64,000 bases of DNA from Escherichia coli (GTDB lineage: Bacteria > Pseudomonadota > Gammaproteobacteria > Enterobacterales > Enterobacteriaceae). The translations under genes were made by a program, and so were the position numbers. The notes beneath the pieces were generated by a model that saw only the letters and a list, made by a program, of their open reading frames with translations, did not search any database and was not told where the DNA came from. Positions 7,809 through 12,331 of the stretch are shown piece by piece. The DNA lies in assembly GCF_024223415.1 (NCBI RefSeq), contig NZ_CP100500.1, one strand, 5' to 3'. Position 1 is the stretch's first letter. The number at the start of each line of letters is the position of its first letter.

Positions 7809-7985
7809 ATGTCAACCAATGACAACAAAAAAGAAAGATTTTCCGTACAACTACGCCTAGACGCAGATTTGTTCGAGCGTTTAAGTATTGCCATGAAAGA
7901 AGATGGCGACGATAACCGATCTGGATGGATCAAAAGGCTTTTACGACGCGAATTAGATAAACGCGGCATTGAGTCAAAAAGCTGA
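7809..7985 (+). CDS. Ribbon-helix-helix (CopG/Arc-like) DNA-binding protein (58 aa)
   Basis: Predicted beta strand then two helices (ERFSVQLRLDADLFERLSIAMKEDG...WIKRLLRREL) typical of RHH regulators; SD-like agagg upstream. Confidence 0.45.
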   Translation: MSTNDNKKERFSVQLRLDADLFERLSIAMKEDGDDNRSGWIKRLLRRELDKRGIESKS

Positions 7986-8202
7986 CAGCCAACCAGCAAG
8001 CCAGCACACTGATCACATTGCCCACCAGCCGCAAATGTGGCATTGTTGGTGATGCTTTTGTTTTCCCTTGTTCCCACTGGCGACCCTTTTGCGGTCGCCT
8101 TTGTTTTGCCTGTTATCCGGCAATTGTGGCGCTTCGCCACACGGTTTATATAACCCCACTGCTCAGATTCATTTTTTGCGCAGTAGGTTAATTGTTCGCA
8201 AG

Positions 8203-8231
8203 GGCGGCTCCTTATCGGGGCCGCTTTTTTC
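8203..8231 (+). terminator. Intrinsic terminator (+ strand) ending the small-ORF transcription unit
   Basis: Hairpin gcggctcc/ggggccgc at 8204..8223 followed by TTTTTT. Confidence 0.5.
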
Positions 8232-8256
8232 GTGTTTGTCATATCTGTGATACCCG

Positions 8257-8463
8257 TTAAGCAGCCGTTCCGCGTGCTTCCTGTTCGCGTTCTTTCTGCC
8301 AGGCCAACACATCATCCTCATACCATCCGCGACGGCGTAAACCAACGCGAAAACCCTGCGGAAATTCTCCGGCGTTGATCATGCTTTGCAGCGTGCTGTC
8401 TGCCTTGATGTGGATAATTTTTTTTACTTCCTGGCGAAAGATAATTTTTCTGATTGCTTCCAT
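8257..8463 (-). CDS. AlpA-family HTH regulator/excisionase-like (68 aa)
   Basis: Pattern R..V......T.....N....P......R..GW.E..V..W matches my recollection of CP4-57 AlpA; located next to the integrase. Confidence 0.6.
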   Translation of the reverse strand: MEAIRKIIFRQEVKKIIHIKADSTLQSMINAGEFPQGFRVGLRRRGWYEDDVLAWQKEREQEARGTAA

Positions 8464-8594
8464 CGTGATTTACCTTGTGAATCCGGTGTATTCCGGTGAC
8501 AAATACGGTAAATCATCGGATATGGGTAAAAACAGTTCCCACCGTTTTTAAACGGTATACACCGTTTTTTATATTGATGATTTGAAATGGAATT

Positions 8595-8620
8595 ATAAAA
8601 AAAGCGGCATTTCTGCCGCT
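8595..8620 (-). terminator. Intrinsic terminator after the 83-aa ORF
   Basis: Hairpin gcggcatttctgccgc at 8604..8619 followed on the minus strand by a 7-nt T run. Confidence 0.5.
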
Positions 8621-8630
8621 TCCAGGATTG

Positions 8631-8882
8631 TTACCGCCATTTTTTGGGCCTGCCTCCGATCTTCATAGATGCCGGACGTACGACCTTATCAATACTTACC
8701 GCCAGATTTCTGGAAGCGCCACGGGATACCAGAAAATCTACTACCTGTTTTTTTGATGGGGCCGTCGTCCTGTCCTCCGGATCGTAGGTTGACCAAAATT
8801 CATGCTGAACCATCAGGGCCAGTTGCAGCCCGTCGCAATTGCATCTGATATTTTTTTGCATCTTAACGGTTTCATGTTTCAC
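8631..8882 (-). CDS. Hypothetical protein (83 aa)
   Basis: ORF between int and alpA; basic C-terminus (GGRPKKWR); no family recognised. Confidence 0.3.
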   Translation of the reverse strand: MKHETVKMQKNIRCNCDGLQLALMVQHEFWSTYDPEDRTTAPSKKQVVDFLVSRGASRNLAVSIDKVVRPASMKIGGRPKKWR

Positions 8883-8959
8883 GGCCTTGTCGTTAAATTT
8901 GATGCAATTATACGACGGTTTTACATGGTTTTCGTAGTTTTTACTGGTTTTCTGTACAG

Positions 8960-10201
8960 CTACACGGCTCGGATACCCCTTTTACCACTGGCGAGGGTTA
9001 CGCCCGTCGCCGCAGCCTCGACAAATTCGCCCCACCAGCGCATCAGCACGATGCGTTTTTCTATGTAGTTGCTCCGGTTGTATGCCCGTCTAACTTCGTT
9101 GGTGTCGACGTGGGCAAGTGCCGCCTCTATTACGTCCGGCTCGAATCCTTCCTCGTTCGCTGCTGTGCTGAATATGGCGCGTAATCCATGAGACACCAGC
9201 ACGCCAGCGAATCCCATACGCCGCAATGCTGCGTTAGCTGTCTGGCTGTTCATCGGCTGCTGTGGGTCTTTCAGACTTGGGAAAACGTAATTGCGGTGGT
9301 GGCTGATTGGTTTCATGGCCTCCAGCACCGCCATAGCCTGACCGGAAAGCGGGATAACGTGATCCCTGCGCATCTTCATGCGTCCGGCAGGTATCGTCCA
9401 TTGCTTCGCGTCCAGGTTGATTTCATCCCACCGCGTTGATGACGCTTCGGCGGGACGGGTTACGGTCAGTAACTGCCATTCAATCAGTAATCTGGTCTGC
9501 CGTTCTGTTGCCGATACTGATAAAGCCTGCATAAGCTCGGGCAGCTGTTCGGGGCGGATTGTTGGCATATGTTTTTTTACAGGTGAGGGAAACGCCTTAC
9601 GCACATTCATAGCCGGATTGGCATCAATCAGCCCACTGTTGGCGGCGTAATCCATTACCTCATTAACGCGCTGTAAAACCCGCTTGAGTGTTTCCAGGTT
9701 GCCGCGCTCCTTGATGGGGGTAAGCACTTCAACGAACCTTCGGGCGGTGAGGGTATCTATTGGCGTGTTGCCGATGAACGGGAATACATATTTATCCAGC
9801 GAACGCCAGATGTCTTTAATCGTGTTGGGGGCCAGATTCTGGCTGATTTTCACCTGGTACCATGCCGCCGCCACATTTTCGAACGTGTTCCCTTGTCTTC
9901 GGGCCTCTGTCTCTCTTTTTTGCCTCTCGTGGTCCTGCGGGTCAGTTCCGGCACTGATTAACGTCCTGTACTCGCTACGGCGTTTTCTGGCATCAGCCAG
10001 GGAAACATCTTCAAGCGATCCAAAACTCAGCAATATTCTTTTTTTGTCCGATGGTCGGTAGTAGGAAAATCTCCAGAGTTTTGATCCAGACGGTTTGACC
10101 AGGAGAAAAAGCCCTCCGCCGTCCTGCAGGGTGTACTCCTTTTGCGCTGGTCTGGCTGCTTTGATCTGCACTGTGGTTAATGGGTGTGTTTTTCTCGCCA
10201 T
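8960..10201 (-). CDS. int: Tyrosine recombinase/integrase, P4-type with N-terminal arm-binding domain (about 413 aa)
   Basis: N-terminus (YxLxDGGGLxLxVxPSGSKxWRFxYR) typical of P4-family integrases; catalytic C-terminal domain; about 220 bp from the tRNA-Pro 3' end. Start trimmed to the second Met. Confidence 0.85.
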   Translation of the reverse strand: MARKTHPLTTVQIKAARPAQKEYTLQDGGGLFLLVKPSGSKLWRFSYYRPSDKKRILLSFGSLEDVSLADARKRRSEYRTLISAGTDPQDHERQKRETEARRQGNTFENVAAAWYQVKISQNLAPNTIKDIWRSLDKYVFPFIGNTPIDTLTARRFVEVLTPIKERGNLETLKRVLQRVNEVMDYAANSGLIDANPAMNVRKAFPSPVKKHMPTIRPEQLPELMQALSVSATERQTRLLIEWQLLTVTRPAEASSTRWDEINLDAKQWTIPAGRMKMRRDHVIPLSGQAMAVLEAMKPISHHRNYVFPSLKDPQQPMNSQTANAALRRMGFAGVLVSHGLRAIFSTAANEEGFEPDVIEAALAHVDTNEVRRAYNRSNYIEKRIVLMRWWGEFVEAAATGVTLASGKRGIRAV

Positions 10202-10234
10202 ATGTCTATGATTCCACACGAAAAAACAGGGTTT

Positions 10235-10286
10235 TAGTTATACGGCTTTAGTTATACGTCAGCCCGTATAACTAAACGTATAACTA
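10235..10286. repeat. Symmetric repeat array between int and tRNA-Pro
   Basis: TAGTTATACG at 10235 and 10249, inverted CGTATAACTA at 10265 and 10277, giving a 52-bp dyad. Confidence 0.4.
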
Positions 10287-10419
10287 AAAAATCCGGCTGA
10301 TAGCTTATAAATCCGGTGATGTTCGGTGACTAAAAAACATAAAAAAACCCGCCAATCAAGTGATTAGCGGGTTATCCCTGTCTTATCCGGTGCTTTCCGG
10401 TGATATCCGGTGGGCGATT

Positions 10420-10496
10420 TGGTCGGCACGAGAGGATTTGAACCTCCGACCCCCGACACCCCATGACGGTGCGCTACCAGGCTGCGCTACGTGCCG
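10420..10496 (-). tRNA. proL: tRNA-Pro (anticodon GGG)
   Basis: Reverse complement reads CGGCACGTAGCGCAGCCTGGTAGCGCACCGTCATGGGGTGTCGGGGGTCGGAGGTTCAAATCCTCTCGTGCCGACCA, which matches E. coli proL from memory. Confidence 0.9.
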
Positions 10497-10570
10497 ACTC
10501 GTGGCTGTTAATACTACCGTTTTCCACACCGATTGCAAGTAAGATATTTCGCTAACTGATTTATAATTAA

Positions 10571-12331
10571 TCAGTTAGCGATAAAACGCTTCTCGTCTGT
10601 CAGTACTTGCAATAACAAACTTAACTGTGGTTTTTCATCTTTCACTCTTTCACCACGTAAGTTGTAAGTGCGGTATTTACCGTTATTGTTCAGCACCAGC
10701 GTCTTTTTCGGGGTGGTAATTGCCAGCGTATCGTTATCCGCTGCGGTAACCCAGTAATGACGGCGTTGAGGGTTGAACAAATCCTGACCTTGCGAATATT
10801 CGCTGGCAGGTGTGCTGACATGTAGCAGGCGTTGCATCAGCGTCGTCATCAGATCGGTATGATCAGTCAGCGCATTAATACGCTGCGCCGGCGTGCCTGG
10901 CCAGTGAATCACTAATGGCACCTGCAGGTGACCGTGGGACCAGTCAAAGGTTTCTTCCTCTTCGCTCAGTGGAATACCCCGACCGGCAGTGATAATCACC
11001 ACCGTATTGCCCAGTTTGCCAGAATCACGCAGTGCATTGAGCACGCGGTTGATCTGGTCATCGACATTGCCTGCCGCCCGGCTATATTTCCGTGCAAATG
11101 CCTGCTGATTGCTGTCGTCAATGTTGGTGCCATTGAAAGAGACCCACGAGAACCAGCGGTTATCTTCTTGTGCGTAGCGTCCCAGCCAGTTGATCCACTG
11201 CGTGGCGGTCTGCTCGTCGGATTGGGTGCGTACGCTCGGCATCGAGAAATCTGACAACAATGCCTGACGATAAAGCGGACTGGTAAAGCCATCTGACGAG
11301 AATAGGCCCAACTGATAGCCTTGCTGGTTGAGAGCGGTAATTAACGCCGCAGGCGTACGGGTCGACAGAATGCCGTCCATATAGCTCGGTGAGATGCCAT
11401 AGAACAGGCCAAAGATGCCGTTGTCTGTAGTGTTGCCGGAGCTCATATGGCGCGTGAACGAAATATTTTGCTCAGCAAAACCTGCCAGCGCAGGCATCTG
11501 CTTCTCGAAGCGTGAGTAGTTCAGGCCATCGACAGTAATCAACAAGACATTCTGCCCGGTGCCCATATCGCGATAGCGCAGTTCGCTTAACGGATACTGA
11601 ACGGAAACGGCGTCTGGATTACCTTGCTCAATAAGACGGCGTTGATACTCCTGTGCATCAAGCAGGCCATGCTTTTCAAGAAAACGTCGCGCCGTCATCG
11701 GGTACGAAAGCGGCAGGTTAGCGCGCTGCATGGTGATCGGGCGATAGAAGTTGGCATCGGCCCAGATATACACCACATGCGAGGCGATAAAGGCGATAAA
11801 TAAGAATGCGGCCAGCGGACGCGCGAAGCGCCGACGACGCGTCAGGCTGCGCAGCTTTTGCCAGCTCCACGTCGCAAACACCAGTTCAAGCAATAAAATA
11901 ACCGGCACGCTGATGAACATCAGCTGCCAGTCGCGCGCCATCTCATTTTCGTCTGGGTTGATAACCAGTTGCCAGACGATGGGATTAAGATGGAGATGGA
12001 AACGAGTAAAGACTTCGCTATCGATCAGTAATAGCGTCATTCCCGCCGTTGCCAGAATGACGGACAAAAACCTCATCAGCCTCTGGGAGCCGACGATAAA
12101 GGTCAGCGGGAAGAGGATCAGCAAGTAGGTGGCGAACACCAGGAAGCTGAAATGGCCGATAATGCTTACGTAGGAATAAATGCGACCAGCAAGCGTGGTC
12201 GGCCAGTCGGCGATAAACAGGTAACGGCTGCCAATGACGAGCGAAAGCAGAATATTGAACAGTGCAAACCAGTGCCCCCAACTGACCATCTGGGAGACTT
12301 TTTCACGGTAGCGCTGACGATGAGTTACCAT
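10571..12331 (-). CDS. yejM: Inner-membrane protein YejM/PbgA (586 aa)
   Basis: Translated ORF recognised as E. coli YejM; conserved synteny with proL. Confidence 0.9.
   Translation of the reverse strand: MVTHRQRYREKVSQMVSWGHWFALFNILLSLVIGSRYLFIADWPTTLAGRIYSYVSIIGHFSFLVFATYLLILFPLTFIVGSQRLMRFLSVILATAGMTLLLIDSEVFTRFHLHLNPIVWQLVINPDENEMARDWQLMFISVPVILLLELVFATWSWQKLRSLTRRRRFARPLAAFLFIAFIASHVVYIWADANFYRPITMQRANLPLSYPMTARRFLEKHGLLDAQEYQRRLIEQGNPDAVSVQYPLSELRYRDMGTGQNVLLITVDGLNYSRFEKQMPALAGFAEQNISFTRHMSSGNTTDNGIFGLFYGISPSYMDGILSTRTPAALITALNQQGYQLGLFSSDGFTSPLYRQALLSDFSMPSVRTQSDEQTATQWINWLGRYAQEDNRWFSWVSFNGTNIDDSNQQAFARKYSRAAGNVDDQINRVLNALRDSGKLGNTVVIITAGRGIPLSEEEETFDWSHGHLQVPLVIHWPGTPAQRINALTDHTDLMTTLMQRLLHVSTPASEYSQGQDLFNPQRRHYWVTAADNDTLAITTPKKTLVLNNNGKYRTYNLRGERVKDEKPQLSLLLQVLTDEKRFIAN

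Follow-up and report, generated by a model that had tools for sequence, protein, structure and literature searches.

Two terminator-ended modules opposite a long reading frame beside alpA in an Escherichia coli phage satellite: candidate cis-antisense RNAs

Introduction

In the plasmids R1 (CopA/CopT-tap) and F (FinP/traJ-FinO), an antisense RNA built of stem-loops and a terminator lies over the 5' region of a leader that must be translated for the downstream gene. ProQ/FinO-type chaperones bind terminator hairpins and help antisense pairing in F-like plasmids. For bacteriophage P1, Biere, Citron and Schuster reportedly found in 1992 that the C4 RNA blocks the translation of icd and thereby leads to Rho-dependent termination. 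Expression of the P1 gene ant is controlled by C4, an antisense RNA, as well as by Icd, and icd is apparently needed for it (PMC8201110). A regulatory RNA is also encoded by the PLE satellite of Vibrio cholerae, whose small RNA (sRNA) acts in trans on phage and satellite transcripts (bioRxiv 10.1101/2022.04.08.487710). Here, we analyse positions 7986-8231 of a 64,000-nucleotide stretch of Escherichia coli DNA (assembly GCF_024223415.1, contig NZ_CP100500.1; hereafter "the window"), which lie within a phage satellite between alpA and a small gene of the ribbon-helix-helix (RHH) type. These positions hold two modules, each closed by an intrinsic terminator on the plus strand, and they are covered on the minus strand by the beginning of a long open reading frame (ORF). 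We propose, with a probability of about 0.45, that terminated cis-antisense RNAs control the translated leader of an operon for Icd and replication functions; the anatomy of the locus is much more certain than its function.

Phage-inducible chromosomal islands (PICIs) and their capsid-forming relatives (cf-PICIs) are widespread satellites that move virulence and defence genes. In Gram-negative PICIs, AlpA is induced by the helper phage and activates its PICI promoter, and it has been stated to be unclear whether a global repressor exists (PMC6092414). Among the passages of PMC11773190 and bioRxiv 10.1101/2022.09.08.507074 that a term search retrieved, none reports a PICI repressor or an RNA at this locus, and our literature search found no paper describing these RNAs or the leader frame.

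The locus resembles several described systems in part. With the immI region of P1 and P7 (c4, icd, ant) it shares a frame of the Icd type at the head of the downstream genes and an antisense RNA placed to control this frame. In P1, however, C4 shares strand and transcript with the genes it controls and, once RNase P has processed it, acts on short sites in trans, whereas the RNAs considered here would be cis-encoded on the opposite strand and end at their own terminators; moreover, our stretch has no Rfam match, and the Icd-like domain follows a long, non-conserved leader of 187 codons. The likeness to CopA/tap and FinP/traJ lies in a cis-antisense stem-loop and terminator RNA over the 5' region of a leader, and the island likewise encodes a ProQ/FinO-family protein, but here the RNAs would arise from or behind a convergent, repressor-like gene, and the leader is hundreds of codons long and overlaps this whole gene. 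As in the pR/pL region of coliphage 186, a repressor unit of the lysogenic type faces an activating or lytic unit and terminators are found on one strand only, with the difference that the units are about 700 nt apart rather than 62 bp. The CI immunity of satellite P4 offers the precedent of a small structured satellite RNA proposed to silence replication genes. Our stretch has neither sequence nor Rfam relation to CI and no seqA, seqB or seqC repeats, and the element is a PICI under AlpA control (PMC6092414). The PLE satellite likewise shares a small satellite-encoded RNA with a regulatory role, but element and host are unrelated to ours. Terminators, cis-antisense RNAs and translated leaders are thus known kinds of elements, and the long ORF is already present in annotations as a hypothetical or "Icd-like" protein; what is new is their arrangement at this locus.

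Results

Positions 7986-8231 are composed of module A (8008-8107) and module B (8108-8231), both on the plus strand and closed by the terminators T1 and T2, respectively. The first-pass annotation of this DNA had described a single untranslated tail of about 245 nt. Instead of one tail we found two modules with two terminators, and the term "untranslated" proved misleading in that the whole stretch lies within a minus-strand ORF starting at ATG 8242. Similar DNA, mostly unannotated, occurs in 1,282 of 5,426 complete E. coli genomes (about a quarter), with up to six copies per genome, and the similarity matches break at about position 8107, the border of the two modules. Module A is the commoner of the two, and module B joins it in about one third of the unique variants. 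In viral contigs, a scan by pattern recovered 71 distinct variants of module A; since the search pattern fixed CCACCAG together with the 3' arm and T tract of T1, leaving the 5' arm of T1 free, the invariance of CCACCAG is partly a matter of ascertainment. Among species-representative genomes, the pattern was found in E. albertii and Buttiauxella and in three unrelated taxa (an alphaproteobacterial metagenome-assembled genome, Shinella, and an acidobacterial metagenome-assembled genome), where we took the matches as due to chance. As defined by this pattern, the module appears essentially restricted to Escherichia.

The surrounding gene order is conserved in all eight annotated E. coli loci that were opened (L002-L008 and L129) as well as in Buttiauxella. 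It begins with alpA on the minus strand, sometimes followed by a BRO-N or other gene, continues with the module or modules and a YlcI/YnfO-family gene on the plus strand, and ends with minus-strand genes for an Icd-like protein, DUF4222, primase or RepA. The YlcI/YnfO-family gene is annotated in seven of the eight E. coli loci, and an RHH-like ORF is readable in Buttiauxella; the remaining locus, L007, instead has a long "Icd-like" ORF annotated over the stretch where the other loci have the YlcI/YnfO gene. The modules always lie 3' of the RHH gene or of a second small plus-strand ORF and face alpA or BRO-N. The convergence with alpA that had been noted for the window was therefore borne out and is kept in related loci.

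Structure is concentrated in this region. A consensus scan found eight terminator-like sites in positions 7000-9000 of the window, compared to 2.5 +/- 1.9 in shuffled sequences, and the 255-nt stretch folds better than all of 200 shuffles on either strand (z = -4.06 on the plus and -3.56 on the minus strand). T1 (8079-8107, plus strand) consists of GGCGACC (8079-8085), a loop, GGTCGCC (8093-8099) and TTTGTTTT (8100-8107), just as the first-pass annotation had read this repeat and its T tract, and folds with -15.1 kcal/mol (z = -4.2). Across 22 diverse variants, all 154 stem cells remain paired, six of them as G.U, and three sequences carry a G-C to C-G double change. Over 53 unique sequences, 370 of 371 cells pair on the plus strand and 354 of 371 on the minus strand; T1 is compatible with both strands and on its own discriminates poorly between them. 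T2 (8200-8230, plus strand) has a 12-bp stem with a 5-nt loop (8200-8228) and six T (8225-8230). A structured stretch ending in an intrinsic terminator had been predicted before and is real, with small errors in its placement at 8203-8231. In the window, T2 reaches -19.5 kcal/mol on the plus strand, as opposed to -13.2 on the minus strand, with z about -4. It exists as two alternative stem sequences, both of which pair. As 208 of 209 cells pair on the plus strand (62 of them as G.U) versus 147 of 209 on the minus strand, T2 is a plus-strand RNA element. Covariation across related islands, which had been proposed as a check, was thus found, with double changes in T1 and near-complete plus-strand pairing in T2. 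Both T1 and T2 display a G+C-rich stem, a short loop and a T run, and their stems are maintained in relatives. Neither hairpin is followed by a U run on the minus strand, so that transcription coming from alpA is not expected to stop here.

The minus strand opposite the modules encodes a long ORF of 595 amino acids (6455-8242), which PGAP names "Icd-like". Its leader (7682-8242, minus strand) starts at ATG 8242-8240, 14 nt after the alpA stop codon, and crosses T2, module B, T1, module A and the RHH gene in antisense direction before it joins the Icd-like gene at the head of the replication operon; the modules make up roughly the first 78 codons of the frame. This leader contains no stop in 187 codons, compared to 12 and 15 in the other two minus-strand frames. 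Among 91 unique loci sampled through the modules, the minus-strand frame in phase with module A is open for at least 600 nt in 83, and most of the translations listed for it close with the Icd-like C-terminus. An independent set of loci, collected through the Icd-like protein alone, gave a corresponding picture: 58 of the 68 unique loci keep the Icd frame open over 500 nt or more upstream, and the other two frames close after 6-72 nt. Nine of the exceptions were examined; in six of them, the gap is bridged by a different frame whose end lies 52-206 nt ahead of the Icd match. Buttiauxella displays the same pattern of an open antisense frame. Furthermore, the length classes of module A (87, 90, 93, 96 and 102 nt) are all multiples of three, with insertions and deletions at differing places.

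The start of this frame is closely tied to the terminators. In about 30 unique loci, the alpA stop codon TAA is followed by aGGGGAGcat-ATG ACA CAT AAA ACA AAG GCG ACC; here, the T tract and 3' arm of T1 form codons 3-8 of the long frame, and T1 complements the frame from about nucleotide +8. The T tract provides codons 3-6, and a strong Shine-Dalgarno sequence stands between the stop codon and the ATG. In the window and 13 other loci, the ATG is found about 10 nt beyond the T run of T2, and T2 complements about nucleotides +11 to +43 of the window's frame. The region of translation start on the minus strand is unstructured in the window (z = -0.8). The spacing between alpA and the frame, 5-14 nt, is too close for the two not to be co-transcribed. 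Any plus-strand RNA ending at T1 or T2, opposite the start of the frame, would therefore be an obligatory cis-antisense RNA to its 5' end, encoded opposite the 5' part of a frame with its own ribosome-binding site and complementary, from the geometry, to the first codons as well as to the 80-240 nt beyond them. That such RNAs accumulate, that the long frame is translated and that the pairing is regulatory is what we infer from this arrangement.

The peptide encoded by the leader does not seem to be under selection. Of the variable columns in module B, 9 fall on the first, 18 on the second and 13 on the third codon position, and this lack of a third-position excess speaks against a constraint on the peptide; homologous nucleotides are read in differing frames among the classes of module A, and the 187-residue leader matched no PHROG family. 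All plus-strand ORFs recognizable as RHH- or orf-b-like occupy the phase in which the third codon positions of both strands coincide. A frame that is kept open and in phase across mosaic variants, while its peptide is not conserved, suggests that translation itself is the selected trait, for instance as protection of the alpA read-through transcript from Rho-dependent polarity.

Beyond the leader, the 595-residue ORF consists of the Icd-like domain (7681-7480), about 220 codons that match no family, and a last 120 residues that match phrog_2512 (E = 2e-49, unknown function), so that four parts can be distinguished in total. Over its 596 codons the frame holds a single stop, its own, in comparison to 32 and 40 in the other minus-strand frames. 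Two small plus-strand ORFs (7311-7505 and 6897-7067) lie inside it, downstream of the Icd-like domain. Both contain FPLE(R/D)FI, similar to the FALExFL motif seen at other loci in the second small plus-strand ORF, and the arrangement of a gene antisense within the frame may be repeated in this island.

Module A comprises the conserved TTGCCCACCAG (8018-8028), a variable hairpin (approximately 8016-8054), a U-rich linker and T1. It is 100% identical in locus L004 despite differing flanks. The nearest plus-strand ORF ends 4, 5, 29 or 32 nt before the conserved TTGCCCACCAG; this ORF is the RHH gene in some variants and in others a second ORF, small and basic, that carries the motif RFAPCAFALExFLKE. 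The first of the inverted repeats reported earlier is present within module A as CACATT/AATGTG (8014-8019/8034-8039), though its 5' arm reads TCACATT and not CCACATT. According to RNAalifold, T1 is the sole structure common to all variants of module A. A consensus fold for the whole module was rejected, as the upstream hairpin, which uses the conserved 5' arm, appears in single-sequence folds only and in differing registers. Module A may furthermore hold a promoter of the form TTGNCC, 17 nt, YATNNT. In the window, the possible sigma-70 promoter reads TTGCCC, 17 nt, CATTGT (8018-8046, plus strand; 7/12), and in L005 a promoter scan flagged TTGCCC-17-TATGAT at 9/12 directly upstream of T1. A by-eye comparison of five classes of the variable region showed A2, T3 and T6 of the second hexamer to be constant.

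Several further sequence features were seen in and around module A. The Chi octamer GCTGGTGG lies on the minus strand at 8022-8029, inside the conserved 11-mer. In many relatives, the 10-mer GCCCACCAGC recurs in one orientation 30 or 75 nt upstream and just after T2, and a near-copy, GCCAACCAGC, is located at 7988-7997. L002, L021, L026, L060 and their relatives carry, in inverted orientation, a near-copy of module A's 5' part (GCCCACCAGCC..AAATG.GG); in this subgroup it is found about 680 nt to the alpA/int side, where its 21 nt sit in a small gene upstream of alpA and encode RPTSLKCGG. The window is devoid of this copy.

Module B is made up of a hairpin, a -10 element, an sRNA-like body and T2. 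The hairpin or palindrome TGTGGCG-CTT-CGCCACA (8125-8141, plus strand) is situated between T1 and the -10 element; the GTGGCG/CGCCAC repeat within it had been recognized before, but its arms occupy 8126-8131 and 8135-8140 rather than 8135-8150. A variant with TGGTC-ATTTC-GACCA keeps the symmetry, and several C-to-T changes give G.U pairs on the plus strand. The -10 element (8146-8154, plus strand) is the perfect extended -10 TGATATAAT in 21 of 23 unique module-B relatives, even with variation in 40 of 97 columns; the window and L095 carry a degenerate form. The window reads TTATATAAC, with TATAAC but without TG, and this copy of module B may therefore depend on read-through. About 30 nt after the -10 element follows the invariant AGGTTAATTGTTC and then T2, right after which similarity ends. 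The body of module B is a candidate sRNA of about 72 nt (8158-8231, plus strand) with a 5' stem-loop, the invariant AGGUUAAUUGUUC (8185-8197) and T2. The RNA predicted for 8158-8232 (75 nt) folds with -28.5 kcal/mol (z = -4.06) and presents the invariant 13-mer within a single strand of 15 nt. The ungapped alignment of module B misaligned the two types of T2, which makes the alifold result for this module unusable. In most relatives, module B has the look of an sRNA gene in its own right, served by an extended -10 promoter of its own.

The stretch is embedded in a phage satellite that extends from position 1 of the window to about 10,420 and is integrated beside tRNA-Pro(GGG) (10420-10496, minus strand) and yejM. 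It is identical to satellite DNA of E. coli strain 135 (NZ_CP080260), where an integrase, a small hypothetical gene, an AlpA-type helix-turn-helix regulator, an "Icd-like" protein and DUF4222, followed by RepA helicase, ssb, PerC, a ProQ/FinO-family protein, major capsid and head decoration, are annotated on a single strand. This gene set is that of Gram-negative PICIs (PMC6092414) and is shared by cf-PICIs (bioRxiv 10.1101/2022.09.08.507074). Given that int, alpA, the replication gene RepA and capsid genes are co-oriented at the attachment site, the element is a PICI/cf-PICI-type satellite and not P4-like, as had been supposed. The island's ProQ/FinO-family protein is encoded at approximately 2684-3268 (minus strand; 3985-4569 in L001), and its gene is not annotated in the O157 relative L129.

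The homologous element of E. coli O157 Sakai is the prophage-like element Sp7, which adjoins roxA/pepT at the position of EcCIEDL933. Its copy of the locus (L130; NC_002695, approximately 1,596.7-1,597.5 kb) is a hybrid, in which a T2-type terminator follows immediately upon the 5' part of module A, and it lacks both T1 and the module-B promoter. In the original annotation, the alpA strand carries a 247-residue hypothetical gene (ECs_1576) and no RHH gene is given.

The genes flanking the stretch are as follows. The RHH gene (7809-7985, plus strand; 58 amino acids) was taken from the ORF list and is syntenic with annotated "YlcI/YnfO family protein" genes. Its product matches NikR-RHH and YlcI_YnfO_N weakly, in both cases below the cut-off, which makes the earlier reading as an RHH gene reasonable. 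The PICI activator gene alpA (8257-8463, minus strand; stop codon 8257-8259) is convergent with the RHH unit, and its product matches Pfam Phage_AlpA weakly. The Icd-like domain (7480-7681, minus strand; NCBIfam phage_ICD_like, E = 4e-16) is in frame with the leader and has its own Shine-Dalgarno (SD) sequence and an ATG at 7681. A near-consensus sigma-70 promoter, TTGACA-17-GATAAT (7787-7815, minus strand; 11/12), faces the Icd-like gene, and its -35 element overlaps the RHH start codon; promoter-like sites are present at the equivalent place in L002 and L005. A 24-nt inverted repeat with 83% complementarity (7748-7771/7809-7832) brackets this promoter. The right arm begins at the RHH start codon and could be part of an operator or of a hairpin hiding the start codon. 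The overlap of promoter and RHH start within flanking repeats suggests a second route to the Icd operon that is controlled by the RHH protein. Upstream of alpA, two adjacent 20-nt repeats, AAACAGTTCCCACCGTTTTT and AAACGGTATACACCGTTTTT, are found in direct and inverted form (8528-8569) and are conserved in L002, possibly as a site responsive to AlpA or to the inducer.

Discussion

According to our model, the stretch is the 3' end of a YlcI/YnfO-like RHH transcription unit in a satellite at tRNA-Pro. T1 and T2 would halt transcription of this unit before it reaches alpA and thus protect alpA from convergent transcription. The terminated RNAs would then pair with the mRNA of the alpA operon near the translation start of the long frame, and this pairing would block translation or trigger cleavage and polarity. 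We posit that the replication operon stays silent until helper-induced transcription from alpA overrides the antisense damping. Translation of the leader may in turn allow transcription from the alpA promoter to cross the 600-1,200 nt of antisense sequence to the Icd and replication genes without Rho-dependent polarity. The first-pass annotation had considered the stretch as a candidate regulatory RNA. A conserved, structured plus-strand RNA region does exist and a regulatory role is plausible, but the long frame on the opposite strand shifts the likeliest mechanism from an immunity RNA acting in trans to control by cis-antisense RNAs.

A number of observations weigh against this model. Both candidate plus-strand promoters are weak in the window, with 7/12 for module A and a TATAAC lacking TG for module B. 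Some architectures place the plus-strand terminator at least 25 nt inside the frame or have a frame that starts hundreds of nucleotides upstream, so that blocking of the start site cannot be universal. In O157 Sakai, where the copy is a hybrid, the peak list from Hfq cross-linking (Hfq-CRAC) has no entry at 1,596-1,597 kb or in Sp7, and no EcOnc peak of Hfq is found in Sp7. When single small plus-strand genes were shuffled synonymously, the antisense frame stayed open in 20-100% of trials; the case for selection therefore rests on the whole span of 600-1,200 nt and on its recurrence across mosaic variants. Conservation may also stem in part from the overlapping frame, from recent mosaic exchange or from the search pattern. 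Finally, much of the sampling was pattern-based, the loci are related by descent and recombination, and the evidence is comparative throughout.

A simpler explanation would be that T1 and T2 are plain tandem terminators or insulators that end the RHH unit before alpA, with no regulatory RNA involved and with conservation resulting from terminator function, the overlapping minus-strand frame and recent recombination. It fits most of the data: both hairpins are canonical and follow directly upon plus-strand genes, T1 alone is retained by RNAalifold across the variants of module A, no trans target was found in the island, and the promoters of the window are weak. We nevertheless consider it somewhat unlikely, since it does not account for the perfect extended -10 element located between the terminators in 21 of 23 module-B relatives and followed by an sRNA-like fold with an invariant single-stranded 13-mer, and since the geometry makes every RNA with its end at T1 or T2 complementary to the first codons of the frame after alpA. 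The same sRNA-like architecture, with terminator and U tail, could also point to RNAs acting in trans through Hfq or a ProQ/FinO-type protein, with AGGUUAAUUGUUC or the variable region of module A contacting transcripts of the host, the helper phage or co-resident satellites. Such a role would agree with the ProQ/FinO-family protein of the island, with the number of copies (up to six per genome) and with the precedent of the Vibrio PLE satellite. The seed of module B is invariant, but a conserved target was not found with it: no complementary site of at least 11/13 recurs in the 44 satellite loci scanned, and Sakai Sp7, with its hybrid copy, shows no Hfq peak, which leaves trans action improbable. 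The conserved parts might instead be sites in the DNA, namely a Chi cluster, a recombination linker or operators for RHH or AlpA. In this regard, the Chi site inside the conserved 11-mer, the mosaic module flanks and the recurrence of GCCCACCAGC two to three times in one orientation at module borders of many loci would fit. Hairpin covariation, T tracts and the plus-strand-specific G.U pairs of T2 would be left unexplained, however. The palindrome at 8125-8141 was found to share no operator words with the RHH/Icd promoter region, and CCACCAG was fixed by the pattern, so that we regard DNA sites as a quite improbable explanation.

Two further possibilities carry very little weight. A small hydrophobic protein could be encoded on the plus strand by 8018-8191 (TTG start) or 8037-8153 (GTG start), and indeed the frame from TTG 8018 is open in 50 of 55 variants and the translations are hydrophobic. 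These ORFs have no SD sequence, however, and run through T1. The frame meets stops in the 93- and 96-nt classes; in the commonest variant, which is that of the window, the 5' arm of T1 is read in a frame differing from the others; and U-rich composition alone accounts for the hydrophobic residues. We therefore rejected such a protein as highly improbable, and the earlier statement that the plus strand is free of ORFs holds for credible genes, both of these mechanical ORFs having failed the tests. Homology to the P4 CI or P1/P7 C4 immunity RNAs has the context of a satellite with a neighbouring Icd-like gene as its only support and is effectively refuted; the first-pass annotation had referred to the small immunity RNA used by P4-like satellites. 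Searches against Rfam, including C4 and IsrK, gave nothing relevant at E <= 10 on either strand of 7680-8260, and at E <= 1 only a tRNA and two chance matches within 5500-11000. No similar DNA was detected by blastn (11-nt words) among 50,697 phage records. The stretch is located on the strand opposite icd and has no seqA- or seqC-like repeats. An ungapped scan for complementary repeats in the style of P4 recovered no recurrent direct or inverted copies in the window or across 91 loci, except for the 21-nt copy of one subgroup. The Pas sRNAs, which come from Stx-type prophages, are likewise unrelated.

Terminated cis-antisense RNAs facing a putatively translated leader remain our preferred reading. 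A wider version of it, which we consider speculative and rather unlikely, would see here an unrecognized switch that silences Gram-negative PICIs and cf-PICIs. In it, a leader of unconstrained sequence would take alpA-driven transcription across the RHH gene into the Icd/replication operon, short antisense RNAs from the tandem terminators and the sRNA gene of the convergent repressor unit would gate the start of this leader, and the stem types of T1 and T2 would define immunity groups among co-resident satellites. What the comparison of loci delineates is a locus between alpA and the replication operon, beside a small RHH gene, with one or two terminator-ended RNA modules and often a small RNA gene that bears a promoter. 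If our model holds true, it would open the silencing and induction of these satellites to simple experiments and would be a case in which selection acts on translation and not on the protein made. It would also account for the very long "Icd-like" proteins that annotation pipelines call here and for their omission of the RHH gene.

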